Assembly (NCBI GenBank): GCA_046705025.1
Contig: JBJKQU010000043.1
Span: 22,611 to 86,610 of the forward strand
Source of the DNA: Candidatus Kryptoniota bacterium
GTDB taxonomy: Bacteria; Bacteroidota; Ignavibacteria; Kryptoniales; JAKASW01
Direction: 5' to 3'
DNA: 64,000 nt
The position numbers and the translations under genes were made by a program. The notes under the pieces are model-generated. The model did not search any database. It was not told the origin of the DNA and saw only the letters and a list, made by a program, of their open reading frames with translations. Shown here piece by piece: positions 4,863 to 50,867 of the stretch (the stretch's first letter is position 1; every line of letters starts with the position of its first letter).

Positions 4863-5332
4863 TTCACCTCAACCGTAATCTTTCCGACTCCCTTTTTGGC
4901 GACGTCCTCACGCGGAGTATTTTTTCTGAATATTACAAAATATGAAGATTTCTCAGCCGCCACTGGAAGGCAGGCGGCATGCCACACCCCTTCATTTATA
5001 ATGACCACTTCCCCGGGGTCCACTGTGAAGGCTTCGGTCTCCTCGTCGGGGCTCCCGTCGAGAAGCAATGGCAACACGAATGGGCTGTCAATCGGGATCA
5101 GAATCTCAGGCGTTTTCTTATGCTGCTCGACACTTGTAACCGGGTTGCCTTCTTCCCTGTAGACCGTGCAAATCCCGATCTCCGTCTCTCCCCGAATGCT
5201 ATAGTTTGCGATGTCAGACCAGAACTTGTAGTTGCTCGCCTCTGAAGTCGCAGGGCCGTGGGGTGCCAGTACGACTTTCCCGTACTTTACGAAATTCTTC
5301 CCGGATAAATGCTTGCTGGTTATGCTTATCAT
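4859..5332 (-). CDS. Small cupin-fold protein, ureidoglycolate-lyase-like
   Basis: 157 aa. Size and pattern (KFWSD...EQHKKTPEILIPID...VVIINEGVWH) fit the ureidoglycolate lyase-like cupin family. The assignment is tentative. Confidence 0.5.
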   Translation of the reverse strand: MISITSKHLSGKNFVKYGKVVLAPHGPATSEASNYKFWSDIANYSIRGETEIGICTVYREEGNPVTSVEQHKKTPEILIPIDSPFVLPLLLDGSPDEETEAFTVDPGEVVIINEGVWHAACLPVAAEKSSYFVIFRKNTPREDVAKKGVGKITVEVK

Positions 5333-5345
5333 AGGCGTACTTCCC

Positions 5346-6782
5346 CTATTTCGAAATCCTGATGACGTATAAATACCCTCCTTTAATCGTAAGATCGGGA
5401 ATGACTGTGTGGTTTCCCTCTACTTCTAGTTTCGGACTCCGCTCTGACTCGCCGACCTCGTTAAAAGCCTCAGCATGTGAGGCGAGGTGTAAGGGAATGG
5501 AGATGCTGATGTTTTCCACGCGGTTGTCTTCAAGGTTGCCGTCTTTCGTCTTCACGTAAGTGCCGGGGACGTGAGTCTGAAGCCAGGCGACTATCGATAC
5601 ACTGCCGTCTTCATTCTCGAAGGTGTGGACAACGCTGTTCGAGCCGATCTTTCTCGTGATAGTCACGTCATCGTCTATGCACCTGTCTTTCCCCTTGAAG
5701 AATTTCACGAAGAAAGCCAGAGTCTTCTCGTCAGGCTTCGGCTGGAATTTCGTGTTTACCACGCCAAGGAAATCATTGTTTACATCTCCGATCACCGTGG
5801 TCCCGACCGGGAGGTCCTCGATCCTGTACCAGGCGGCTGCGGCAATCTTGCCCGTGGCTCTGATAAGCGTGAGCGTTCTGAAGAGATCGTCGGCCTGGTA
5901 TTCCGGAGTATGCTCGTAGGCGTACTTCGCCGTGTAACTGTAAGAGACGTAAGCGCCTCTCCGGAAGTCGCTGTAGCCTACTTCGGCGCACCAGATGGAC
6001 TGATGGTCCCCGTATTGCTTGACGATGTCGGCTATCCTCTGGATATGATTGTAAAGACGCTCCAGCGGCAATCCGCTCCAGGTCTCATTATAGCTGTGGA
6101 TATTGACGACGTTGACGTAGGGACTCACATGGTAATCGCGGAAAAGCTGATAAGTGAAATTCGTGTTCCATGCCAGCCCCGCGAGGACGACGATAGCATT
6201 CCGATCGGCCTTACGAACTGCATTCGAGCCGATCTTAAGCAGCCTGGCGTATTGGCCGACAGTCCCGGTCCAGAAGTCGGGTATGTCGGCTTCGTTCCAG
6301 ATTTCCCACGACTTGATCTTGTTCTTGTAACGACTCACTGCCTTGTAAACAAATCTACCGAACTCTTTGTAATCCTTGGGAGGATGATTCCAGTAATTCG
6401 AAGTGTCGCCGGTCGAATTCCACCTCGGAGTATAGCAGAAGTAAGGAATCAGTGTCATCCCGTATTCATCGACCGCGATCTTGACAAACTTATCCCAGAA
6501 CGACCAGTTGAACTTCCCTTTAGCCGTCTCGATGTGATCCCATCCCATTCCGAATCTCAGGAACTTGACCCCAACCTTCTTCATGACCTCCATGTCCTTC
6601 CTGATCTTGGTCGGGGTTGTGGTTTCAGGGGGATAGTCCTCGCAGATTCCGACTGCCATGTGGTAATAGGCGGCGTTCGGCTTTTTCAGAAGCTGATCGT
6701 AGACAAATTTTCCCGTTTGAGCTCTCGACCCAACCGTCATCATGAAGAACAGAAATACTGCTCCAAATACAGATTTTATCAT
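5346..6782 (-). CDS. Secreted clan GH-A (GH5/GH39-like) glycoside hydrolase
   Basis: 478 aa with an N-terminal signal peptide (MIKSVFGAVFLFFMMTVGSRAQ). Acid/base-type WEIWNE motif and a later nucleophile-type AEVGYS motif, typical of clan A TIM-barrel glycosidases. Exact family not resolved. Confidence 0.65.
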   Translation of the reverse strand: MIKSVFGAVFLFFMMTVGSRAQTGKFVYDQLLKKPNAAYYHMAVGICEDYPPETTTPTKIRKDMEVMKKVGVKFLRFGMGWDHIETAKGKFNWSFWDKFVKIAVDEYGMTLIPYFCYTPRWNSTGDTSNYWNHPPKDYKEFGRFVYKAVSRYKNKIKSWEIWNEADIPDFWTGTVGQYARLLKIGSNAVRKADRNAIVVLAGLAWNTNFTYQLFRDYHVSPYVNVVNIHSYNETWSGLPLERLYNHIQRIADIVKQYGDHQSIWCAEVGYSDFRRGAYVSYSYTAKYAYEHTPEYQADDLFRTLTLIRATGKIAAAAWYRIEDLPVGTTVIGDVNNDFLGVVNTKFQPKPDEKTLAFFVKFFKGKDRCIDDDVTITRKIGSNSVVHTFENEDGSVSIVAWLQTHVPGTYVKTKDGNLEDNRVENISISIPLHLASHAEAFNEVGESERSPKLEVEGNHTVIPDLTIKGGYLYVIRISK

Positions 6783-41420: not shown

Positions 41421-41602
41421 AGCTGACTGGGGATTTGTGAAGATAGTTCGAAGCCTTCCGCTATATGTGCAGGAGTTGTCCGTCCGAAGGACCACTGTGG
41501 GAGGGTCCGCCGATACAAAATGTCATGGGCGGAAACGGATGCCGTCGAATCCCCTCCGTCATCTGTTGAATGCGCGAAACGCACCTTCGAGAATAGAACC
41601 AC

Positions 41603-41661
41603 GGGAGACACCGAGACACAGAGAGAATATTTGTTCTTCATCAGGGTCTCGTGTGTCTCCC
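41603..41661 (-). terminator. Long hairpin downstream of the rubrerythrin gene
   Basis: GGGAGACACCGAGAC (41603-41617) pairs with GTCTCGTGTGTCTCCC (41646-41661): 15 bp with one bulged T and a 28-nt loop. On the minus strand it is followed by GUGGUUCUAUUCUC. Confidence 0.45.
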
Positions 41662-41737
41662 GCAGGTGCCCTGAGAACCTGTGGCTTGATTCAGCCCAGT
41701 CCAAACCCTATCAGGGCTCCGCACTCGGTCCGAGATG

Positions 41738-42409
41738 TTACTTCTTAAGGAGCGATCCCGAGTGCTGGCTTCCGCCTGCAGGCTGCAAATTGACGGTGAA
41801 ACCTCTGCTCATGCTTGTCATGCAGATGCCGCAGCGCTCCGGCCCCTGACCGGGGTAAGTATTGCCGCAGGTACTGCAAACCTCGTATGACGACGCGAGG
41901 GAAGCCACGTTATTGCTCTCCAAATCGTTCAGCGCGTTTTGGAAGAATGCTTTGTGCTTCAATCCGGTCTCGTAGGCGTAGTTGAACGAAATCTGCGCCA
42001 TCGCCACCTTTGCCTCGCTGGCATCCTCGATAAAGCCGGGATACAACTTCAATTCGTTCGTTTCCCCCTTGACCGCGTCCTCAAGATTCTCCTTCGTCGA
42101 GTTCACCTTGAAGTCCGGCATAACCGTAGGCGTCGGCTCCTCAAGCTGCTTAAGAGCTGCCGCGTGATTGGCAGCGTGAATCTTGTCGGCTTTCGAGACC
42201 GCCTCGAACAACACCGCAATCTTCTGCAACCCTTCCTCTTTCGCTTTCTCTGCGTACGCGGCATACTTCACACTGGCTACCGTCTCATTTGTGAATGCCG
42301 ATCTCAAGTCTTCCGCAACTTTCTGCTCGTCGGCCTTCTGTGCCGACCACGCGGGAACGACTATAGCCGCAAGGAGGACTATCACAATTGTGACCAGGTA
42401 TTTTTTCAT
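41738..42409 (-). CDS. Rubrerythrin/ferritin-like di-iron protein with an N-terminal signal or anchor sequence and a C-terminal 4-Cys motif
   Basis: 223 aa. MKKYLVTIVIVLLAAIVVPAWSAQ. Di-iron helix motifs NETVASVKYAAYA, FEAVSKADKIHAANH, GETNELKLYPGF and AYETGLKHKAFF. C-terminal CSTCG...CGIC. Confidence 0.7.
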   Translation of the reverse strand: MKKYLVTIVIVLLAAIVVPAWSAQKADEQKVAEDLRSAFTNETVASVKYAAYAEKAKEEGLQKIAVLFEAVSKADKIHAANHAAALKQLEEPTPTVMPDFKVNSTKENLEDAVKGETNELKLYPGFIEDASEAKVAMAQISFNYAYETGLKHKAFFQNALNDLESNNVASLASSYEVCSTCGNTYPGQGPERCGICMTSMSRGFTVNLQPAGGSQHSGSLLKK

Positions 42410-42536
42410 GGCTTCCCTCTCTTTGTATGGTGGAGTTCAACAGAACATCTTCAATAAGAGACTTCCCGTCAGGCTGGAGTCCGCTTTGCCTGAGTGATGT
42501 CTTTTATTCGATACGACATTGCGAGAAGAAAGTTAC

Positions 42537-42589
42537 CCCCGAAGTGCATGCATCCATGGTTGGAAGCAATGAAGCAGCCACCTTCGGGG
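42537..42589 (-). terminator. Stem-loop downstream of the response-regulator gene (weak terminator candidate)
   Basis: CCCCGAAG (42537-42544) pairs with CTTCGGGG (42582-42589). The loop is large (about 37 nt). On the minus strand it is followed by GUAACUUUCUUCUC. Confidence 0.3.
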
Positions 42590-42642
42590 CGATGACGTGA
42601 AATTATGGTAGGTACCTGCGGAGTTGCTGCTGATGCCGAATC

Positions 42643-43389
42643 CTACAGCCTGTGTATCCTGTCCACGTAACTGCGGCTTACAACGAGCTCGGTCCTGTCC
42701 TTGTCCCTGAGCTTCACCTTGTACTTTCCGCCGAACCATTTCACCAGCTCCAGCATGTGCCTCATGTTCACGATCGCCGAGCGGTGGATTCGTACAAAGT
42801 CCGTAGAGTCCAGTTTAGATTCCAGCTCCGTGAGTGTGAGATCGACTATATACTTCTGGTCAGCGGTGTGGAGGTAGGTATATTTGTCTTCCGAATCGAA
42901 ATAGACGATGTCGGCACAGTCGACAAGGACAATCCTGTCGCCGACCTTTACCTGAAGCCTTTTCAAGGGAGCCGTGGCGAGGCGTGAAAGAAGCCGCTCG
43001 ACGTTCTCGTCGAACCTGAGCGCCTGATGCTCGAAGAGCTGACGCAGCTTGTCTACGGCCTTATCCAGCCGCCGCTGTTCGATGGGTTTCAGAAGATAAT
43101 CGACTGTGTTCTCTTCGAACGCTTTCAGGGCATACTCGTCGTATGCCGTCGCAAACACGATGTGCGGTTTCGATTTCAGCCGGCGCACTACCTCGAACCC
43201 GTCGAACCCAGGCATCTGGACATCGAGAAAGATAACATCCGGATTTGCTGCGTCGATCCGCTCGACCGCCTCCCCGCCGTTCTCAGCCTCACCGACGATC
43301 TCGAGCTCCGGCTCGTACTTCTTCAGCATCCTGCGGAGACGCTTCCGCGCAAGTTCCTCGTCGTCGACGATGATGACCCGCAGATGCAT
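42643..43389 (-). CDS. LytTR-family response regulator
   Basis: 248 aa. Receiver domain (IIVDDEELAR...DVIFLDVQMPGFDG) and C-terminal LytTR DNA-binding domain (FVRIHRSAIVNMRHM). Confidence 0.9.
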   Translation of the reverse strand: MHLRVIIVDDEELARKRLRRMLKKYEPELEIVGEAENGGEAVERIDAANPDVIFLDVQMPGFDGFEVVRRLKSKPHIVFATAYDEYALKAFEENTVDYLLKPIEQRRLDKAVDKLRQLFEHQALRFDENVERLLSRLATAPLKRLQVKVGDRIVLVDCADIVYFDSEDKYTYLHTADQKYIVDLTLTELESKLDSTDFVRIHRSAIVNMRHMLELVKWFGGKYKVKLRDKDRTELVVSRSYVDRIHRL

Positions 43390-43398
43390 TCCGGTCCT

Positions 43399-44433
43399 TT
43401 ACTTCAGTGGAAGACTGATGACAATTTCACAATGGCCGTTCCGGACGATCTCCAGCGAGGCCTCATCCCCATAAAGGAGCCTGAGCCGCTCCTGAATGCT
43501 TCTCAGGCCGAACCCGCCGGGCTCGCCGTTTTCCTGAAATCCTCTGCCGCTGTCAAGCACCTTGATGACGCACATTCCGTTTATCTCCTTCGCCTCGACG
43601 AGAATCTCCCCGCCGTCGACAGCCGGGGCAATGCCGTGCTTGATGCTGTTCTCGACAAGCGGCTGGATGAGCATCGCGGGAACCTCGACTTCCCGCATGC
43701 GGTCGTCGCATATAACGTCATACCGGAGCCTGGCGCCGAGCCTCACTTTCTCGATTTCCAGATATGTGCGAATGAGATCGAGCTCTTCAGCTAAACTCAC
43801 AGTGTTCTTCTCAGTGTGCCTGAGCGAATGCCGGAAGAGATCGGAAAGTTTTTCCACGGTTTCCTCTGCAGCTTTCGGATTCTCGGAGATGAGGCTTGCA
43901 ATTGAATTCAGCGTGTTGAACAGGAAATGAGGATTGACCTTGGTCTGTAGCGCCTCGAGCTCGGCCTTGGTTTTGAGTCTGGTCAGACGCTCCTCGTTCA
44001 GCTCTTTTTCCTTCAACTCTGCCCCCAGCCGCTCAGCGTGATCCCGAAGCGAGAAGTAAAGAACGGCCACGCTGCCGAATATCACGGCGAGAACCAGATT
44101 GAACTGAAGCATGCGAATGTGTCCCAGCCCGCTGAAGGTAGTTCCGAAAAACACGTGGAGCAATCCGATCGCTACTTCGGTGCCTATTATGCCGCCGCCT
44201 ACAAAAAGGACGACCATGACGCCGATTCGCGGGATGACACTCATCCGTTCACATCTCGGATAGAAGAAATGCACGAGCCCGGAAATGCTGAAGCCGATGC
44301 AGTTCGCAAATATGAAGGCGTTGTAAAGGTACTCCCACCAATGCTGCGGATCGTTAAAGGCCAGCCCGACCGTTATTACAATCGTTATTATCGTGTTGAC
44401 GACGAGCGTGAGCAGAAAGTGCGTCTTCCTCAT
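43399..44433 (-). CDS. LytS/YehU-type sensor histidine kinase (multi-TM N-terminus, His_kinase + HATPase)
   Basis: Start set at ATG 44433 (MRKTHFLLTLVVNTIITIV...), which overlaps the upstream stop as ATGA. Contains the NPHFLFNTLNSI H-box of the PF06580 type and a GxGxG ATP lid (DSGRGF...GGFGL). The ORF-track start at 44625 would overlap the upstream gene by 196 nt. Confidence 0.85.
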   Translation of the reverse strand: MRKTHFLLTLVVNTIITIVITVGLAFNDPQHWWEYLYNAFIFANCIGFSISGLVHFFYPRCERMSVIPRIGVMVVLFVGGGIIGTEVAIGLLHVFFGTTFSGLGHIRMLQFNLVLAVIFGSVAVLYFSLRDHAERLGAELKEKELNEERLTRLKTKAELEALQTKVNPHFLFNTLNSIASLISENPKAAEETVEKLSDLFRHSLRHTEKNTVSLAEELDLIRTYLEIEKVRLGARLRYDVICDDRMREVEVPAMLIQPLVENSIKHGIAPAVDGGEILVEAKEINGMCVIKVLDSGRGFQENGEPGGFGLRSIQERLRLLYGDEASLEIVRNGHCEIVISLPLK

Positions 44434-45707
44434 AGCTGCACCTGCGCGCCGATGTTGAGAGTCTCCTTGTAGAAGAGTGCACCGAACTCCGACTCGCTCC
44501 TGCCGGTAAATACAGAAAAGCGCCCGTATGTCGAAAGATTCTTCGAAATCCTGAATGAAACTGTCGGAATGAGTACCGCACTCAAATCCTGGGCATTCAT
44601 GAACTGGATCAGCTCGATCCCCCACGGCCCGGCTCCCCAGTACTCGCGCCCGAAGAGGTAATTTCTCATCGCGCCCCGCGGCGAAAGTGTATACAGAGCC
44701 CAGAGGAGATTATTTCTTGACGCGCCGACAAGTTCGGGAGACATTTGTATAAGCCCACGCTGAATGTCACTCTGAAACTTAACATAGTTCACCCATCTTT
44801 TCCATTGTCCGGTGGACAAACCCTCCGTGTTGCGGTAGAACTCGACGGCGATGTTGATGCCGTTGCCGAACGTATATTGTGCCCCTATCAGAAGCTTGTA
44901 AAATATCTGACTGGAATAGTCATACATCGCCACGTAGGGGTATGAAGAGAAGATCTGTTGAATGTCGTTCGTCTCAACGATCCGGTTGTACAAGTTCGAA
45001 GACCCCTGCTTCCCGAGAAATTCGCCGTGGAGCTCAAGGTTGTCACCCACCACGTAAGACCAGTTCCCTCCGAGCTCGAGCCGGTCCCCTTCCCTGTAGT
45101 GACCGACGAACGAGAGATCCAAACCGGACAGGAATGTATACGCGCGCAGCGCGATCTGCTGTGCTCCCCAATGCCACTTCCGGGATCCGATCCCGCTTTC
45201 GTTCACATAGACCAGTGTCAGCGAACTCTTTCCGGTGAAGAAGTCGACGGACGCGAGGTCCAGCCCCTCGTTTTCCCCGAGCCTGTCCGACGGGTCTGAC
45301 GGCGACCGCTGCGGCTCGACTACTCCCGTCGGATTAAAGGCATAACCGGTTCCCCACTTCAGGATTTTCTTCCCTATGGTGATATCCCAGGCGTCAGACA
45401 GCGAATAATTGAACGAAAATTCGCGAAGAGAATACGCGTAATCGGGAGACGATAGATTGTCCGTGTTGGTCGAAAGGTTTAGGAGCACGGAGAGTCCGCC
45501 GACGCCCAAATAGAGGTTTGAAGTGGCGACATTCCCCCGGTAAGGTTGAGGAAGGATGCTGTTCCGGTAATTGAGCGGTGTATCTTTGTTGAGAACGCTC
45601 AGCGTCCCCTCGTCGACAACCGAAAGCCTGTAATCCAGGTCCTGCGACCGGAGCTCCCACGGAGCGGCGAGAAGTGCGGTGAGAACGAGAAGTGCGCGGC
45701 CGGTCAT
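44430..45707 (-). CDS. Predicted outer-membrane beta-barrel protein of unknown family
   Basis: 425 aa. Signal peptide MTGRALLVLTALLAAPWELRSQ, then alternating amphipathic strands and aromatic girdles (KILKWGTGYAFNPTG...). ATGA overlap with the LolA-like gene. Confidence 0.5.
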   Translation of the reverse strand: MTGRALLVLTALLAAPWELRSQDLDYRLSVVDEGTLSVLNKDTPLNYRNSILPQPYRGNVATSNLYLGVGGLSVLLNLSTNTDNLSSPDYAYSLREFSFNYSLSDAWDITIGKKILKWGTGYAFNPTGVVEPQRSPSDPSDRLGENEGLDLASVDFFTGKSSLTLVYVNESGIGSRKWHWGAQQIALRAYTFLSGLDLSFVGHYREGDRLELGGNWSYVVGDNLELHGEFLGKQGSSNLYNRIVETNDIQQIFSSYPYVAMYDYSSQIFYKLLIGAQYTFGNGINIAVEFYRNTEGLSTGQWKRWVNYVKFQSDIQRGLIQMSPELVGASRNNLLWALYTLSPRGAMRNYLFGREYWGAGPWGIELIQFMNAQDLSAVLIPTVSFRISKNLSTYGRFSVFTGRSESEFGALFYKETLNIGAQVQL

Positions 45708-46456
45708 CTCAACTTGTCCAGGTAATCCTTATTGAAGTACTTATCGGGAAGCTCTCGGGGGCCGTATGAGTCGTAAAGCATGATCGTGGTGCGCCCCGGG
45801 CGCAGCCTGTCGGTGATCGTCGTTTGGGTCAGCAGTACTCTCCCGTTTATCTCTTCGTACTTGTCGAAGCTTATGCTCTTGTAATGCTTTCCGGAGGTAA
45901 GGTAGATTTCTGCCCGCTTCGGTCTATCGGTCCCTTTGGCAACCCAGTACACAATATGGTTGTAGGTCGCGCCGTCCCGCTTGGCCTTCAGGTCCAGCAC
46001 GTAGCACGGCGTACCGTCGAGGACTTCTTCACGCAGCAGCTTAGCCGAATAGTCCTGTGCATACCGGGTGCGGGCAACATCGCCGTTCGACGCGTCTCCC
46101 ATCAGTCGCTGGAGCGGCGTGATCCGGATCGGCCTTCTCGTGTCGGGCATGTAGAGCCACATGTCGTCGCCCACCATGAGAAGGTACTCCCCCTTCACGT
46201 CGGCGTTCAGGAATTTCACCAGGGTTTTGTCCGCGCCTTTAATTGTCACATCGAAGCGGCCTGTGTCCTTCAGCTTCCCGTCCTCGAAGTTCTTGATCGT
46301 GGTATGAACGGCGTAGGAGTCCCAGCCGTTGCGGCTCACATCCGACAACTGTAGGATCTTATCGGCCGGGAGCTTTTCCGGTGAGCTCTGGGCATGTGCG
46401 CAGGCGGTTGCAATGAACAGGCTGAATACGAGTAAGATGGTTAGTTTGCGATTCAT
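45704..46456 (-). CDS. Outer-membrane lipoprotein-sorting protein (LolA-like fold)
   Basis: Start set at ATG 46456 (MNRKLTILLVFSLFIATACAHAQ). The pattern KTLVKFLNADVKGEYLLMVGDDMWLYMPDTRRPIRITPLQRLMGD...DGTPCYVLDLKAK matches the LolA_like family. Confidence 0.65.
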   Translation of the reverse strand: MNRKLTILLVFSLFIATACAHAQSSPEKLPADKILQLSDVSRNGWDSYAVHTTIKNFEDGKLKDTGRFDVTIKGADKTLVKFLNADVKGEYLLMVGDDMWLYMPDTRRPIRITPLQRLMGDASNGDVARTRYAQDYSAKLLREEVLDGTPCYVLDLKAKRDGATYNHIVYWVAKGTDRPKRAEIYLTSGKHYKSISFDKYEEINGRVLLTQTTITDRLRPGRTTIMLYDSYGPRELPDKYFNKDYLDKLR

Positions 46457-46606
46457 GACAGTCCTTTCAAGGTTTGAGGATAGAACACGGATATTACGGA
46501 CGATGCGGAATCCCACGGATTTGAAATGTAATTTGGCCATGGATCCGCGAGAATCCGCTCGTTACGTTTCGTCCGTGTTCCGTATTTTTGTATTCTCTTC
46601 TCCCGG

Positions 46607-47833
46607 CTAGATGTGGCCTAACGCATCTACGATCTTCAGCCTCGACGCCCTGTACGCCGGTACCACTGTCGAAACGACGGTCGTCATCGACATCAGCACG
46701 AACACTCCGGCGAAAAGCATCGGCACCGTATCTATCAGAAGCGGGTAACCGCTCGTCCTACCCGGAGCAGGGGGCATCATGATATGGGATCCGTTTATCA
46801 GCTCCGCAAGACCATAAGCGATCAGGAGCCCAAGCACGGATCCGAGAACTCCGATGATCAGCCCTTCGTAAAGGAAATTCAGCATCAGGCGCAGGCGCGA
46901 TGTTCCCACAGCCAGCTGAGTTCCTATCTCCTTTGTCCGCTCGAAGATTGACATCATCATCGTGTTCGAGCTGCTCAGAACGACGATTATGAAAATGATG
47001 ACTCCGAGGAATCCGAAGATAGCATTGTACAGGCGCACGACGGCATTATAGAAAGTCGCAAGATCGAACCAGCGCTTTGCCGTGATGTTCGGAAACATGT
47101 TCTCCAGCTCCGCCGCGACGGCCGTAGTCTTGTCGGTCTGATCGAGGACGACGACCAGCTTCGTGACCTTGTCCGAGTTGAGCAGATGCTGTGCAGTATT
47201 GAGGTCGACCATTAGCGCGCGCTCGTCGTACTCCGGGATCCCTGTCGAATAGGTGCCGACGACTTTGACATCTATCGCATTCAATGCGCCCTTCGAAGTT
47301 GTCGTCATGAGGGTCAGGTATTCGCCGGGTTTGGCCTTCATCGTCTTCGCCAGCCCGCTCGCCAGGACTACCTCATTGTCTTTTGTGTCGGCGGGATCCT
47401 GGTCGAGGAACCGTCCAGTATCGATGTCGAGGCCGAGGTCGGATAGCTTGAGCTCTTTGTCCGGCTCGACGCCGCGTCCGAGGAACGCCTCCGACTTGTC
47501 GCCGTTGGAGATCAGTCCCATGAACTCGATGCGCGCCATCGTAAACCGTACATGATCGAGCGTGATGATTTTCTTCTTCATCGCGTCGACGCTGTCGAGC
47601 CCGAGTTGCAGCGGATGGTCCTCTTCACGCTCGAGGTATTCTTTGTTGAACAGCTGGATATGGCCCAGCTGTCCGTGGATCGTCGACTCGCTCAGTCCCC
47701 TGAACGTAAAAACGATGAACCCGCCGGCGAGGATGAGCGCTGTCGCGCCGAACACCAGCACGAGGCCGGTGATCGCCGTGCGGCGGCGGTTGCGAAACAC
47801 ATTTTTGAAAGCAAGCTTCATGAAATTAGACAT
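46607..47833 (-). CDS. ABC transporter permease, FtsX/LolC-like (single module with periplasmic domain)
   Basis: Start set at ATG 47833, preceded by GGAG (MSNFMKLAFKNVFRNRRRTAITGL...). C-terminal FtsX motif ERTKEIGTQLAVGTS. Confidence 0.85.
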   Translation of the reverse strand: MSNFMKLAFKNVFRNRRRTAITGLVLVFGATALILAGGFIVFTFRGLSESTIHGQLGHIQLFNKEYLEREEDHPLQLGLDSVDAMKKKIITLDHVRFTMARIEFMGLISNGDKSEAFLGRGVEPDKELKLSDLGLDIDTGRFLDQDPADTKDNEVVLASGLAKTMKAKPGEYLTLMTTTSKGALNAIDVKVVGTYSTGIPEYDERALMVDLNTAQHLLNSDKVTKLVVVLDQTDKTTAVAAELENMFPNITAKRWFDLATFYNAVVRLYNAIFGFLGVIIFIIVVLSSSNTMMMSIFERTKEIGTQLAVGTSRLRLMLNFLYEGLIIGVLGSVLGLLIAYGLAELINGSHIMMPPAPGRTSGYPLLIDTVPMLFAGVFVLMSMTTVVSTVVPAYRASRLKIVDALGHI

Positions 47834-47853
47834 TGGTTTCTCCTCGCCTTGAA

Positions 47854-48546
47854 TTATGCCTGAACCTGTTGACCGTTCACGATGATGCCGTCGTGCAGCT
47901 TCACGATCCGCCTGGCATGCTGCATGACAAGCTGGTCGTGCGTGCAAAAGAGGAATGTCACCTTGTCTTCCTCGTTGAGCGTGTGCATGAGGTCGAGTAT
48001 CTCAGAGGCCGTGGCCGAATCGATATTTGCCGTCGGCTCGTCTGCCAGGATGAGCTTCGGCCTGTTGACGAGTGCGCGGGCGATGGCGACGCGCTGCCGC
48101 TGGCCGCCGGAGAGCTCGTTCGGCTTGTGCTTCCGGAATTCCCAGAGCTTCACTTCTCTTAGAGCCCTCTCCACCATCTCCCGACGCTGCGCGCCGCTCT
48201 TCTTAGTGAGGAGAAGCGGGTACTCGACGTTTTCATACGCCGTGAGCACGGGAATAAGGTTGAACGTCTGAAAGATGAAGCCGATCTTTTCCAGCCTGAT
48301 AGAGTGGAGCTTTGTCAGGCCGTTGTACTTCACCCGGGCTCCTTCTAGGAAGACGGTCCCGGCAGTCGGCGAATCGATAAGGCCGAGGAGGTTCAGCAGT
48401 GTCGTCTTGCCGCTGCCCGAAGGCCCTGAGATTGCCGTGAATTCTCCCGGCTCGATATCGAGGGTCAGGCCGCGGAGTGCGTGCACTTCCGTCCTGCCGA
48501 GCACGTAGGTTTTCGTGATCGCCTGTGTTTGAACCAGTAAGTCCAT
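47854..48546 (-). CDS. ABC transporter ATP-binding protein (LolD/MacB-type)
   Basis: 230 aa. Walker A GPSGSGKTT, signature LSGGQRQRVAIARAL and Walker B ILADEPT. Confidence 0.95.
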   Translation of the reverse strand: MDLLVQTQAITKTYVLGRTEVHALRGLTLDIEPGEFTAISGPSGSGKTTLLNLLGLIDSPTAGTVFLEGARVKYNGLTKLHSIRLEKIGFIFQTFNLIPVLTAYENVEYPLLLTKKSGAQRREMVERALREVKLWEFRKHKPNELSGGQRQRVAIARALVNRPKLILADEPTANIDSATASEILDLMHTLNEEDKVTFLFCTHDQLVMQHARRIVKLHDGIIVNGQQVQA

Positions 48547-48565
48547 TGCTTCTCCTCCGAGCGTT

Positions 48566-49219
48566 TTAATTTAAATCTTTCAGTTCCCGGCCGGCGTCCT
48601 GTGCGGTTTTGGACCCGGGAGCGGAATCGATCGCCTTCTGCAGGAGTTCCTTCGCTTTCTCAGGATTGTTGTCCTGCTTGTAAGCGTAACCCGCCCAGTA
48701 GTAGATTGTCGATTTGAGCTGCGGGTCGAAATGCGGGAACGCGGGCGAGTTCATTAGGTACGAGAAATCTTTCAATGCGGTTCCAATCCGCTTGAACATC
48801 GAGGGCAGCCTGGCACTGTTGATGCCGCGGGTAAGGCGAACCGCCACGTTGTCGGGAGCAAGGTCGACCGCTTTGTCCATCTCGTCGATGCCCTTCTCGA
48901 CATCGTTCTTTTTCGTGAACGGCCACCACGCGTCGCGTCCGCGAAGCGTCCAGAGGCTTCCCCTGTATGCCAGCGCCACCGCGTTCGTCGGGTCCAGGGC
49001 GAGGACGGTATCGAAGCAGGTGAAACCTTTCTCGACCGCATCCTTGTTGCCGGCCACTCCCTCGTTATGGTACGCGATGCCGAGCTCCAGGAGAGCTTTG
49101 ACGTCGTGGGGCGAATGAGCTACCTGTGCCTGAAGGTCTTTGATCGAACCCTGCGGGGAGCACACCGCTGTGGACATGAGAACCGCAAATGCTGTAATGA
49201 CGAAGCGTCGGTAATCCAT
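48566..49219 (-). CDS. Secreted TPR-like repeat protein
   Basis: 217 aa with a signal peptide. Helical repeats with A/L/Y/G spacing (ALLELGIAYHNEG..., YYWAGYAYKQDNNPEKAKELLQKAI). Confidence 0.6.
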   Translation of the reverse strand: MDYRRFVITAFAVLMSTAVCSPQGSIKDLQAQVAHSPHDVKALLELGIAYHNEGVAGNKDAVEKGFTCFDTVLALDPTNAVALAYRGSLWTLRGRDAWWPFTKKNDVEKGIDEMDKAVDLAPDNVAVRLTRGINSARLPSMFKRIGTALKDFSYLMNSPAFPHFDPQLKSTIYYWAGYAYKQDNNPEKAKELLQKAIDSAPGSKTAQDAGRELKDLN

Positions 49220-49490
49220 GACAATTCTCCTTTATTTTCGTGTGAAACTATCTTGTTGACGTGCACAAGATGGCCGGTGCGGTCGTGAAAGAGGAGGAGA
49301 TTCCGACGAAACGACAAAAGAGAGGGATGAAATGATATCAGGATGGACGAATCGCCTACGGCTGAGATCCTCATACAAAGAAATGGAGGCGCTTGAGAAG
49401 TAACTCAAATAACAGGTAAATTTATACGTGTTCACACCCGGGTTGGAGAAAGTGCCTTATAATCACCATTTAGAATGGAGCGAAACGAAG

Positions 49491-50867
49491 ATGTCGCCAG
49501 GGATGACGCGCCCGCGGAGCATACCGACTCCGCACGGTGTTGTACTTGCCCTTCTACTGACGTCAATGATCATCGCTCAATGGGGCTGTGGAGATCAAAA
49601 CGCCGCAGGAGTATCCTCACGATACTCGATCATCAAAGGAACGGTCACGGATGATTCGGGGGGCTACTCTTTCGATCGTGTTGCCGGATTCCGAACAGTG
49701 TCGATGGCCGGGTCGGCTGTTCAGGGCGCGAAAGTGGTTGCGATGTGGGCTCCGTCCGGAGGCACACTTGGCCCAATCTCGGACACCGCCATAACGGATG
49801 CAGCGGGAGGATTTTCGCTCACATGTGGAACGACCGGGATAAACAATGTCAAAGTGGTTGCAACCAAGGACGGGAGAACGTGGGAGGCCATCGTCGGGTC
49901 GAGACTGAGTTTGGGCGGGATAGCACATTGCCAGCCTTTGACGGATCAAAGTACGGTCGAAGCGCGGGTGTATTCAATGCTGGCCGGCGGCAGCGGCTCA
50001 GGCTCTGTAGCCCTTGCCGACATAGTCGAGGTAGTGAGCTCTCCGGTTGCTGCCGCGGCGAAAAATACCGACGCCGGCATCGAACAGCTGGCCGCCTCCA
50101 TTAAAGCAGGAGAAGAAACATGGATCCTCGCACTGCAAAACTCCTCGATAGGAAATGCCTCATTGCCGACGGTAAACGTCGTGCAGCTCATACGGAGCAC
50201 CGCGGAGCAGGCCCTGGAGCTGGGGCTAAACAAGGCGGGCGAGAACCGAGCACTCTCCGAAAACGCGTTTACCGTCTTCTTGCAGGAAGACCAGGAGGCT
50301 TACCTGACCGAAGGTGTCGGCACGCAGGCGGTTGCTCAGATCGCTGCTATCTGTTCGCGAGCTGAAACGAACGCCCTGACGGGCGCGGACTCTACTCTCA
50401 AGTTAGAAGTGACTCGACAAACAAACCTGATTACGGCCTTTATGGTCAAAGATGCAATAGATTCAAGCATGCGAGCCCTCCTGGCTTCTCAGCTAAAGCT
50501 CGACTCGGCGAATGCCGCCGGAGAAGCGCTCATGGAAGAAATTCAGGGTAGCTATACATCTGCGGAGATTGGTTCGGCACTGAGTACTTATCACGACACC
50601 ATCCTTCGACTGACAGCAAATGCGGTAGGAGGCGAGCAGGCATCTCAGGTTACGGCGGCCGACAGCCTGATAAACGCCGTTATCGGGTTGAAACCCAATT
50701 TCCTGCGGGTAATATCGCTGCAATTGTCGGCCGGCGATCTGGTGCAGATTTACGCATCCTTCTTTCAAGGCGTCGAATCGGAAACGAAGAAGGTCGTTAG
50801 CCCCCTTCCCGCGTACGAGGTAAATGCTATTGCAAGCATATTGATGCTGACAAACATGACGAACTGA
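49491..50867 (+). CDS. Lipoprotein of unknown function (N-terminal CarboxypepD_reg-like beta domain plus a long Ala-rich helical region)
   Basis: Start at ATG 49491, preceded by GGAG. Lipobox LLLTSMIIAQWGC. The motif IIKGTVTDDSGG...AAGGFSL resembles carboxypeptidase-regulatory domains. The remaining roughly 300 aa are A/L/E/Q-rich. Confidence 0.5.
   Translation: MSPGMTRPRSIPTPHGVVLALLLTSMIIAQWGCGDQNAAGVSSRYSIIKGTVTDDSGGYSFDRVAGFRTVSMAGSAVQGAKVVAMWAPSGGTLGPISDTAITDAAGGFSLTCGTTGINNVKVVATKDGRTWEAIVGSRLSLGGIAHCQPLTDQSTVEARVYSMLAGGSGSGSVALADIVEVVSSPVAAAAKNTDAGIEQLAASIKAGEETWILALQNSSIGNASLPTVNVVQLIRSTAEQALELGLNKAGENRALSENAFTVFLQEDQEAYLTEGVGTQAVAQIAAICSRAETNALTGADSTLKLEVTRQTNLITAFMVKDAIDSSMRALLASQLKLDSANAAGEALMEEIQGSYTSAEIGSALSTYHDTILRLTANAVGGEQASQVTAADSLINAVIGLKPNFLRVISLQLSAGDLVQIYASFFQGVESETKKVVSPLPAYEVNAIASILMLTNMTN

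Follow-up and report, generated by a model that had tools for sequence, protein, structure and literature searches.

The 64,000-nucleotide stretch of Candidatus Kryptoniota bacterium DNA analyzed here (contig JBJKQU010000043.1, positions 22,611 to 86,610; hereafter the window, in whose coordinates positions are given) carries on its minus strand, at 42643-49219, seven consecutive open reading frames (ORFs) that encode the parts of a putative trans-envelope transporter together with a two-component system. A sequence-only reading of the window had proposed the order tetratricopeptide repeat (TPR) protein, ABC ATPase, FtsX permease, LolA-like protein, predicted outer-membrane barrel, LytS-type kinase and LytTR regulator, and had suggested that the products form a conduit across the envelope for a hydrophobic or lipidated cargo. 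The ORF list and the domains identified in Pfam and NCBIfam scans agree with that order (TPR-ABC-FtsX-LolA_like-barrel-histidine kinase-response regulator).

Gene content of the seven-gene cassette

The junctions between the genes were read directly from the sequence. ATGA overlaps are present at 45704-45707 and 44430-44433, and the kinase stop codon is separated from the regulator ATG by 9 nt, in keeping with the tight packing proposed for the last four genes; translational coupling across the overlapping junctions is plausible. Further upstream, the intergenic spacing is 19 nt between the TPR and ABC genes and 20 nt between the ABC and FtsX genes, with a GGAG-type ribosome-binding site before each downstream gene. 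The start of the LolA_like gene was placed at ATG 46456, and not at 46540, because its orthologs begin there with a cleavable signal peptide. This start leaves a gap of 150 nt behind FtsX, and tight packing is hence confined to the last four genes. Across related loci (identified below by L numbers) the FtsX-LolA_like spacer measures 12-28 nt in most cases and 150-380 nt only in the window (46457-46606) and its closest relatives (8869-9248 in L001, 9068-9230 in L002, ~164 nt in L003 and L004). The long inserts are unalignable, except for short ATCCGTGTTC-like strings common to the window and L002, and could represent either an internal promoter providing basal expression of carrier, barrel, kinase and regulator, or an inserted element. 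A scan of 41600-49600 for sigma-70 promoters and terminators returned counts equal to those of shuffled sequence, with nothing above background, and is uninformative, probably because this lineage uses promoters that are not of the sigma-70 type.

The first gene (48566-49219; minus strand, as for all seven) encodes a putatively secreted TPR protein of 217 aa, with an N-terminal signal-like segment and multiple TPR matches in Pfam. Its AlphaFold2 (AF2) model is all-helical and adopts a generic TPR fold, and a Foldseek search returned only generic TPR matches (CTPR, MamA, OGT, NlpI, PilF), which provide no functional clue. It is followed by a 230-aa ABC ATPase of the LolD/DevA/MacB type (47854-48546; PF00005, E 1e-35, 123.5 bits). 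The best NCBIfam matches of the ATPase (LolD, DevA, DarD, FtsE, MacB) all fall under their equivalog cut-offs, including the LolD equivalog TIGR02211 (220.7 bits, with a cut-off of 307.75). The third gene (46607-47833) encodes a 408-aa type VII (MacB-fold) permease matching both MacB_PCD (PF12704, 56.8 bits) and FtsX (PF02687, 62.5 bits). Hydropathy places its hydrophobic segments at residues 24-42, 268-286, 316-343 and 365-391, corresponding to the topology of MacB, in which a first transmembrane segment is followed by a 225-aa periplasmic domain and then by three further transmembrane segments. The type-VII-like motor of the sequence-only reading is therefore recovered in full, with four transmembrane segments, MacB_PCD between the first and the second of them, a C-terminal FtsX domain and a PF00005 ATPase. 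Given that a single permease gene is present, the permease is presumably homodimeric. Its nearest solved chains are LolE, YtrF, MacB and LolF, all weak matches (E 1e-8 to 1e-12), and its score against the LolC/E equivalog TIGR02212 (105.3 bits) does not reach the cut-off of 362.45. No membrane-fusion protein or HlyD domain was found in any of the seven genes, and none occurs in the conserved order of the related loci.

The fourth gene (45704-46456) encodes a 250-aa periplasmic carrier of the LolA_like family (PF17131, E 4e-48), which covers positions 2-183 of the 184 in the family model and scores 164.1 bits against a gathering threshold of 30 bits. The protein is homologous to PDB entry 3BUU (NE2245, LolA superfamily; E 6e-41), and its orthologs carry cleavable signal peptides of the signal peptidase I type, without a conserved Cys. 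Matches to the LolA1 and LolA3 models are weak and sub-threshold (LolA1_Flavo, 22 bits, with a cut-off of 100), and the gammaproteobacterial and E. coli carriers are labeled by NCBI as "outer membrane lipoprotein-sorting protein". The window carrier has no match to DUF1329 (PF07044) at E<=0.01. PF07044 is matched, in contrast, by relatives of the carrier from loci encoding an MMPL pump (34.7 bits for a Delongbacteria protein and, at the sequence level, 30.2 bits for the fusion protein of L069 described below, with a cut-off of 23.1). These scores argue that the PF17131 carrier and DUF1329 families are related.

The product of the fifth gene (44430-45707; 425 aa) matches no Pfam or NCBIfam family. 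Its AF2 model, based on a 22-sequence alignment (pLDDT 83.5, pTM 0.78), presents 18 long strands connected by turns of 2-5 residues on one side and by long loops on the other. This arrangement of turns and loops matches that of an outer-membrane barrel whose two termini face the periplasm, and the protein is accordingly modeled as an 18-stranded outer-membrane barrel. The first Foldseek matches were 18-strand channels (chitoporin, AlgE, Occ/OprD and Campylobacter MOMP), with a TM-score of ~0.55 and ~10% identity, so that the likeness to chitoporin, AlgE and OprD lies at the level of the fold only. Among 5.8 billion proteins, 139 relatives of the barrel were identified, all annotated as "hypothetical" and none with a Pfam domain, and when 1.84 billion representatives of clusters at 50% identity were searched with a profile, 1457 clusters passed E<=1e-3 and 108 passed E<=1e-30. 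Ten diverse relatives matched no Pfam family even at E<=1, and a Pfam family is lacking for 13 relatives in all; the profile detected no relative among PDB sequences at E<=10, and a search with a diverse 53-sequence profile returned the same unannotated family, adding no named one. The barrel anticipated by the sequence-only reading thus falls into no known porin family by Pfam, NCBIfam or PDB-sequence search. DUF1302 (PF06980), in particular, was matched neither by the window barrel (E<=0.01), nor by the 10 relatives (E<=1), nor by the E. coli and Plesiomonas barrels (E<=0.01). The MMPL locus of Cupriavidus CH34, considered as a source of DUF1302 in a tblastn search of the plasmid collection, was set aside as a hopanoid HpnN cluster (radical SAM/DUF3463, LytB, MlaA) without DUF1302.

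Conservation within the barrel family is centered on an invariant block, W118-G-x-G-Y-A-F-N-P-T-G-V-x-E-P ... P-S-D-P-x-D-R-L. In the window protein the corresponding motif (WGTGYAFNPTGVVEP..SPSDPSDRL) sits in long loop L3 (residues 115-148), and a helical hairpin (residues 299-340) is found in loop L7. By analogy with the L3 loops of porins, we infer that loop L3 may lie in or over the lumen of the barrel.

The last two genes encode the two-component system. The histidine kinase (43399-44433; 344 aa) matches PF06580 (99.4 bits) and HATPase_c (25.4 bits, slightly under the 26.4-bit cut-off). Its N-terminus contains, by hydropathy, four transmembrane segments within 130 aa, connected by short loops and with no periplasmic domain, and the Pfam scan revealed no 5TMR-LYT or GAF domain. 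Four N-terminal transmembrane helices are likewise described for AlgZ (PMC4064291). The membrane-embedded PF06580 kinase of the sequence-only reading therefore stands, but its assignment to the LytS type does not: the protein is predicted to be a small, four-transmembrane intramembrane sensor similar to AlgZ/FimS, and not LytS proper. It is 30% identical to the kinase encoded at the same position in the Plesiomonas cassette. The response regulator (42643-43389; 248 aa) combines REC (PF00072, 90 bits) and LytTR (PF04397, 99.5 bits) domains, and scores under the equivalog cut-offs for both BtsR (188 bits) and LytR (180 bits). With a REC-LytTR regulator and a PF06580-HATPase_c kinase, the pair has the domain composition of the LytS/LytTR class.

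Conservation of the cassette and contexts of the carrier-barrel pair

Related loci were collected by scanning one GTDB genome per species (185,579 species genomes) with patterns derived from the barrel, which reach only part of the barrel family. This search yielded 86 confirmed loci, 80 of which were kept. Locus ORFs were translated and searched with the seven window proteins, and the counts reported here refer to the 51 loci in which both flanks were sufficiently covered by sequence. ABC ATPase and FtsX were both scored in 37 of these 51 loci, with kinase and regulator present in 29 and absent from eight, one of which (L011) encodes a kinase fused in frame with the barrel ORF. In the remaining 14 loci, where ABC and FtsX were not both scored, kinase and regulator were absent from 13 and present in a single locus, whose FtsX had been missed by the window query. 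A TPR gene is recognizable in 23 of the 29 loci that combine ABC, FtsX, kinase and regulator around the barrel, and in 26 of the 37 ABC-type loci overall; it is usually the first gene, is found between the ABC and FtsX genes in L049 and L051, and has a counterpart of 218-220 aa in the E. coli cassettes.

The full TPR-ABC-FtsX-LolA_like-barrel-kinase-regulator order is also present in other Kryptoniota, Ignavibacteriota, KSB1, Aminicenantales and many unclassified metagenome-assembled genomes, with the nearest loci belonging to Candidatus Kryptoniota (80% barrel identity); the exact barrel sequence of the window matched no recorded protein. A six-gene core comprising ABC ATPase, permease, LolA-like protein, a hypothetical protein, histidine kinase and LytTR regulator was identified in Plesiomonas shigelloides and Vibrio sp. 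HDW18, and the hypothetical protein of Plesiomonas is a homolog of the barrel (hhalign probability 94%, E 1.6e-7, 299 columns). Vibrio campbellii harbors five core genes and a weak TPR gene, and its barrel, unscored by phmmer, was found beside the carrier gene by tblastn. With an identical order found in dozens of species-level genomes belonging to several phyla, the clustering of the seven genes is far beyond chance, and their co-conservation holds well outside the window. The distribution of the cassette is patchy and accessory, and includes plasmids and secondary replicons. With 86 loci detected among 185,579 species genomes, using patterns that reach only part of the family, the cassette family would be absent from most genomes of its phyla.

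The most stable element of these loci is the carrier-barrel pair. The LolA_like gene lies directly upstream of the barrel gene in essentially every locus with sequence available, and the pairing is obligate within this barrel-selected set. On plasmid pHIC of Haliovirga abyssi (Fusobacteriota; L085, 5020-9311), TetR, MMPL and LolA_like genes are accompanied by a ferredoxin gene in place of an adjacent barrel; outside the barrel-selected set, the carrier hence does not always occur with a barrel. In 10 of the 13 loci noted above, in which kinase and regulator are absent and ABC and FtsX were not both scored, the LolA_like-barrel pair is encoded without any ABC or FtsX gene, and in those examined it comes behind an MMPL pump. 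This arrangement, with the pair behind an MMPL-family resistance-nodulation-division (RND) pump, is found in Fibrobacterota and Delongbacteria. The pump gene is separate and followed by LolA_like and barrel genes in L055, L063 and L066, and in two Chitinispirillaceae loci (L069, 5828-9511, and L070) the MMPL pump is fused in frame to a C-terminal LolA_like domain, with the barrel gene coming next. The region upstream of the MMPL loci contains a TetR gene in L066 and an SPFH/Band-7 gene in L063. The occurrence of the same pair behind either motor suggests that carrier and barrel constitute a modular "outer half" for which either an ABC or an RND pump can serve as the motor.

Several contexts provide clues to the cargo. 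In a Terriglobia locus (L044, 7242-16533), which encodes no kinase or regulator, the ABC-FtsX-LolA_like-barrel genes are directly followed by a gene for a 1794-aa type I polyketide synthase (PKS; KS-AT-DH-KR-ACP). In E. coli O157:H7 EDL933, an island beside ycdU (L083, NZ_CP124742.1, 554-12079) carries the module among two ketosynthase (KS) genes and an acyl carrier protein (ACP) S-malonyltransferase (MCAT) gene, in the order ABC ATPase, 218-aa protein, permease, carrier and a 462-aa barrel whose homology is supported by hhalign (probability 80%, E 1.5e-5). On the E. coli G8 plasmid (L081, NZ_CP060058.1, 370-10756; IncK2/Z), the module is embedded among genes for ACP, KS, a short-chain dehydrogenase/reductase, a crotonase and a FeeM-like N-acyl-amino-acid synthase, and its TPR protein presents a faint, below cut-off match to TPR_Slam (E 0.0075). 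Two PLSDB records listed as plasmids, NZ_CP124742.1 (212 kb, "EDL933 plasmid unnamed1") and NZ_CP134663.1 (4.9 Mb), hold chromosomal E. coli genes (ycdU and the adjacent island); both look like mislabeled chromosomal sequence, and the O157 copy should not be assumed to be plasmid-borne. In Thalassolituus oleivorans, the MMPL-LolA-like fusion TOL_3187 was induced 42-fold on the n-C28 alkane, and an adjoining predicted porin with "no conserved domain" was expressed only on n-C28 (PMC6304351); fusion and adjacent porin reproduce the architecture of L069. The MMPL, PKS, fatty-acid and N-acyl-amino-acid contexts, together with induction on n-C28, point to a hydrophobic small molecule or lipid, rather than a lipoprotein, as the probable cargo.

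The genes flanking the cassette in the window (rubrerythrin-like, S10 peptidase, divergent 479-aa ORF and rhamnosidase) have no counterpart in related loci, and the seven genes therefore constitute a self-contained unit. The rubrerythrin gene downstream and the divergent 479-aa gene were both considered as further members of the cassette and discarded, neither being kept in any related locus. The former (41738-42409, minus strand; rubrerythrin/ferritin-like, PF02915), located 233 nt downstream of the regulator gene, encodes a protein whose N-terminus carries a hydrophobic signal or anchor and whose C-terminal part has a CxxC...CxxC motif; if exported, it would be an unusual rubrerythrin.

A candidate operator upstream of the first gene

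Alignment of the 180 nt upstream of the first gene at 16 orthologous loci revealed one conserved block only, GCAyTTCATCC-N5-TTTTGTC-N3-TCGTCGGAAT, with unconserved flanks. In the window the block occupies 49296-49335 and comprises, on the minus strand, the half-site ATTTCATCC (49333-49325) and, 21 nt from it, the half-site GTTTCGTCGG (49312-49303), with a third and weaker repeat, GATTCGTCC (49353-49345), located 20 nt further upstream. The three direct repeats, at a spacing of 20-21 nt, define a candidate LytTR-type operator (49296-49353, minus strand) that is conserved at orthologous promoters and falls within the interval, 49220-49430, singled out by the sequence-only reading for repeats of this type. 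Thirty nucleotides downstream of the proximal repeat, a CATCTTG element (49266-49272, minus strand; consensus TAyCTTG) with invariant or near-invariant columns represents a candidate core promoter element.

A position weight matrix (PWM) derived from the 16 promoters scores 56.7 bits at 49296-49335, with the next best site in the 64-kb window at 0.3 bits, and an 11-locus PWM that leaves out the window and its four closest relatives scores 45.4 and 1.9 bits, respectively; by PWM, the operator is single in the window. In 16 kinase/regulator loci not used for the PWM (L004, L013-L017, L020, L022, L024, L029, L035, L039, L043, L045, L046 and L048), the top-scoring site of each 10-21-kb locus was located directly upstream of the first operon gene (9.5-53 bits). 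Loci without kinase and regulator (L049-L081, L083) presented no operon-proximal site, with scores below 10 bits. The putative operator hence co-varies with the presence of the kinase and the regulator.

LytTR binding sites are composed of 9-11-nt repeats separated by 11-13-nt spacers (PMC4847170), and the region 49296-49353 conforms to this architecture of two or more repeats at the sequence level only. The half-site reported for YpdB, GGCATTTCAT, has CATTTCAT in common with the distal half-site of the window (PMC4847170), and the AlgR core CCGTTCGTC and the algD-RB3 site CCGTTTGTC (PMC4064291) are resembled by the proximal repeat, GTTTCGTCG, and by the middle element of the window operator, respectively. 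Among the gammaproteobacterial cassettes, the AlgR core CCGTTCGTC is found letter for letter in the Plesiomonas promoter, and the corresponding position in Vibrio HDW18 reads CGTTCGTTC. The two loci (L082, ~5810-5860, and L087, ~4930-4975) also share CGTTCGT..N14..CATAG..TGTCT ahead of the ABC gene. This comparison of two sequences suggests that the gammaproteobacterial cassettes and the window may share the same half-site specificity. From the position and conservation of the repeats, we infer that the regulator may activate its own seven-gene operon through 49296-49353.

The intergenic region containing the operator is shared with the divergent 479-aa ORF (49428-50867, plus strand), which has no Pfam match and a lipoprotein-like N-terminus (..IAQWGCGD). 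The ORF could be co-regulated through this region; a homolog was found in no related locus.

Proposed mechanism, known systems and alternative explanations

The cassette resembles three known transport systems in part. The Lol pathway, like the cassette, joins an ABC extractor of type VII to a LolA-fold carrier in the periplasm and an acceptor in the outer membrane, and among named families the cassette ATPase and permease are nearest to LolD and LolC/E/F. The Lol acceptor, however, is the lipoprotein LolB and its carrier is canonical LolA, whereas the cassette encodes a predicted integral 18-strand barrel and a PF17131 protein. E. coli, Vibrio and Plesiomonas possess a canonical Lol pathway, and the cassette occurs alongside it as an accessory and putatively inducible system. 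Identity with the housekeeping Lol pathway was rejected on these grounds, since the equivalog cut-offs are missed, the E. coli and Vibrio hosts have canonical Lol and the cassette is found on plasmids and accessory replicons. MacAB-TolC and DevBCA-HgdD export amphipathic or lipidic cargo across both membranes. They share with the cassette the permease fold (MacB_PCD and FtsX, four transmembrane segments) and the ATPase family, but rely on a membrane-fusion protein and a TolC-type duct, for which the cassette has no gene. Due to the lack of a membrane-fusion protein, the cassette is not a MacAB-TolC-type pump; the periplasm would instead be crossed by means of a soluble carrier, and the outer membrane through a porin-like barrel.

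The third system comprises the DUF1302 (PF06980)/DUF1329 (PF07044)/BNR (COG4447)/RND (COG1033) genes, represented by AmeABCD of Castellaniella defragrans, P. putida PP_0765/0766 and PP_2018/2019, and Shewanella Sama_1588-1591. AmeABCD has been characterized as a monoterpene efflux system (PMC6394551). The DUF1302/DUF1329/BNR/RND genes are cofit and have been proposed to export a cell-wall or envelope component (10.1101/072470). As in the cassette, an outer-membrane barrel gene lies beside that of a LolA-superfamily periplasmic protein, accompanied by an inner-membrane pump, and the substrates are hydrophobic, with a function that is partly understood (10.1101/072470; PMC6394551; 10.1101/2020.07.04.188060). 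The comparison with DUF1329/DUF1302 drawn in the sequence-only reading proved apt, because relatives of the carrier match DUF1329 and because in other phyla the carrier-barrel pair comes behind, or is fused to, a COG1033/MMPL pump, as in the DUF1302/DUF1329 systems (10.1101/072470; PMC6394551). The DUF1302 barrel is nevertheless longer (~600 aa, versus ~425 aa in the cassette), and the BNR/Ycf48-like gene and the RND pump are both absent from the window cassette, which has a MacB-type ABC motor instead. The DUF1302/DUF1329/RND systems, in turn, have no TPR protein and a LuxR-type regulator, where the cassette has a TPR protein and an in-operon AlgZ/AlgR-like two-component system. Given the absence of a PF06980 match and of a BNR gene, and an ABC motor in place of an RND pump, the cassette is by available tests not a DUF1302/DUF1329 cluster.

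On the regulatory side, the two-component system parallels AlgZ(FimS)/AlgR in its four transmembrane helices, PF06580 kinase and REC-LytTR regulator, and both AlgZ/AlgR and YpdA/YpdB in an operator of direct repeats with a 21-nt period. It is not orthologous to these systems, with BtsR and LytR scores below cut-offs, and differs from them in that its genes lie within a transporter operon, which it apparently serves alone. Firmicutes have Bce-type modules (BceAB-BceRS), in which an ABC transporter related to type VII is paired with an intramembrane-sensing kinase devoid of an extracytoplasmic domain. The presence of both elements in one module suggests, by analogy, sensing of flux or substrate. 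The ten-transmembrane BceB nonetheless differs from the four-transmembrane MacB_PCD permease, the kinase and regulator families are different, and the cassette, with its barrel in the outer membrane and its carrier in the periplasm, is specific to diderms. A description of the module was not found in the published literature on PF17131 and LolA-like proteins. The logic of a motor, a LolA-fold carrier and an outer-membrane acceptor is known; its combination with a barrel, a TPR protein, swappable motors, and an in-operon sensor and operator is not.

The explanation that we favor, with a probability of roughly 0.55, is that the cassette may export a hydrophobic or amphipathic compound, either a small molecule or a lipid, across the envelope and induce its own expression. 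The trans-envelope conduit advanced in the sequence-only reading draws support from the unknown-family barrel, the co-conservation of the genes and the candidate operator. The MacB-fold ABC transporter, composed of the ATPase and a homodimeric permease, would move its periplasmic domain at the expense of ATP and in doing so withdraw cargo from the periplasm or from the outer leaflet of the inner membrane. The cargo would then be passed to the soluble LolA_like protein, which would shield it while it crosses the periplasm and deliver it to the 18-stranded barrel, where the invariant L3 loop would gate or line the passage into or through the outer membrane. The secreted TPR protein could act as a conserved accessory, scaffold or docking factor, and its role is the least certain of all. 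The four-transmembrane kinase would sense a membrane-borne signal, such as cargo or, in Bce-like fashion, transporter load, and phosphorylate the LytTR regulator, which would bind the three direct repeats ahead of the operon and activate all of its genes, those of the two-component system included.

Several points weigh against such an exporter. The kinase/regulator-coupled cassette is known from sequence alone, and the direction of transport is deduced solely from the polarity known for transporters of the MacB and MMPL types. The structure models are of single proteins, and the key loop of the barrel is modeled poorly (pLDDT ~30-50 for residues 119-145). The 150-nt FtsX-LolA_like gap in the window could be the site of an internal promoter. 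No biosynthetic genes are found near the kinase/regulator-coupled cassettes, and the cargo could come from outside the cell or be a lipid of the envelope. Finally, the phenotypes of analogous systems on Tween, fatty esters, monoterpenes and n-C28 are equally compatible with uptake.

The strongest of the alternatives, and still an unlikely one, is uptake. Nutrients of high hydrophobicity (long-chain alkanes, fatty esters or terpenes, for example) would enter through the barrel, be shuttled to the inner membrane by the LolA_like protein and, when present, induce the system through kinase and regulator. Uptake would account for the induction on n-C28 of the Thalassolituus MMPL-LolA-like fusion and its neighboring porin (PMC6304351), for the growth defects of P. 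putida DUF1302/DUF1329 mutants on Tween 20 and butyl stearate (10.1101/2020.07.04.188060), and for the reduced growth on monoterpenes caused by an ameB insertion (PMC6394551). The window is also rich in catabolic genes (rhamnosidase, MFS transporter, peptidase), but none are conserved beside the cassette. As far as we know, MacB-fold ABC transporters and MMPL/RND pumps are exporters or extractors. The motors in question are of these types, the cassette encodes neither a substrate-binding protein of the importer type nor a type I/II permease, and elsewhere the module is found inside PKS, fatty-acid synthase (FAS) and N-acyl-amino-acid clusters, which points to export.

A specialized Lol-like route for one class of lipoproteins or lipidated proteins, with barrel and TPR protein acting as a Slam-type surface translocon, ranks next and appears improbable. 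That LolD and LolC/E are the nearest named families and LolE and LolF are among the nearest solved permeases would be expected of such a route, but the equivalog scores fall far below cut-offs (220.7 versus 307.75 for LolD, 105 versus 362 for LolCE). The carrier belongs to the LolA superfamily and its relatives bear the "lipoprotein-sorting" label, yet it matches PF17131, and LolA1/LolA3 only weakly and below threshold. To the faint, sub-cut-off TPR_Slam match of the E. coli plasmid TPR protein must be opposed the absence of any candidate lipoprotein cargo gene conserved in or beside the cassette, and the presence of canonical Lol in the E. coli, Vibrio and Plesiomonas hosts. MMPL pumps, moreover, are known to move lipids and not proteins; in other loci the carrier-barrel pair has such a pump as its motor, in some cases with pump and carrier in a single polypeptide, or is encoded within PKS/FAS clusters.

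We regard as more improbable again a role in envelope lipid homeostasis, whereby bulk phospholipid or a structural outer-membrane lipid would be moved between the membranes under stress, with no dedicated metabolite. An intramembrane-sensing kinase does suggest a membrane-state signal, the kinase/regulator-coupled cassettes lack biosynthetic genes, and the analogous DUF1302/DUF1329/RND genes have been proposed to export an envelope component (10.1101/072470). A housekeeping function of this kind, however, sits poorly with a putatively inducible and autoregulated system of patchy and accessory distribution, plasmids and secondary replicons included, and with a family that would be missing from most genomes of its phyla. 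Chance adjacency of an ABC transporter, a porin and a two-component system without a common function, which could invoke the 150-nt gap in the window and the background-level promoter and terminator calls, is very improbable and already contradicted by synteny, as the order is kept across at least five phyla with differing flanks, the FtsX-LolA_like junction is short (12-28 nt) in most loci, the last four genes overlap or nearly so and the operator co-varies with kinase and regulator.

To our knowledge, the crossing of the aqueous periplasm and of the outer membrane by hydrophobic metabolites, surfactants and specialized lipids is well understood only for lipopolysaccharide (Lpt), lipoproteins (Lol) and TolC-duct pumps, and the cassette points to a further solution, present across many phyla, in which a soluble LolA-fold carrier is combined with a dedicated porin-like barrel. 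Tentatively, and with less confidence than in the exporter itself, carrier and barrel could be viewed as the widespread and modular outer half of a so far unrecognized envelope-crossing route taken by lipids and hydrophobic metabolites. This outer half would be coupled to an ABC or an MMPL/RND motor and would serve natural-product clusters, including that of E. coli O157, with the kinase/regulator version as the diderm counterpart of Bce-type flux-sensing detoxification modules. Such a route would explain in general terms how hydrophobic small molecules can traverse periplasm and outer membrane when no TolC duct is at hand. Since the operator is defined, the inducing signal, and hence the cargo, may be approached by means of a reporter, and the question can be put to the test in relatives of the cassette, which occur in Vibrio and Plesiomonas, both culturable, as well as on an E. 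coli plasmid and in the O157 island, the E. coli loci being genetically tractable.

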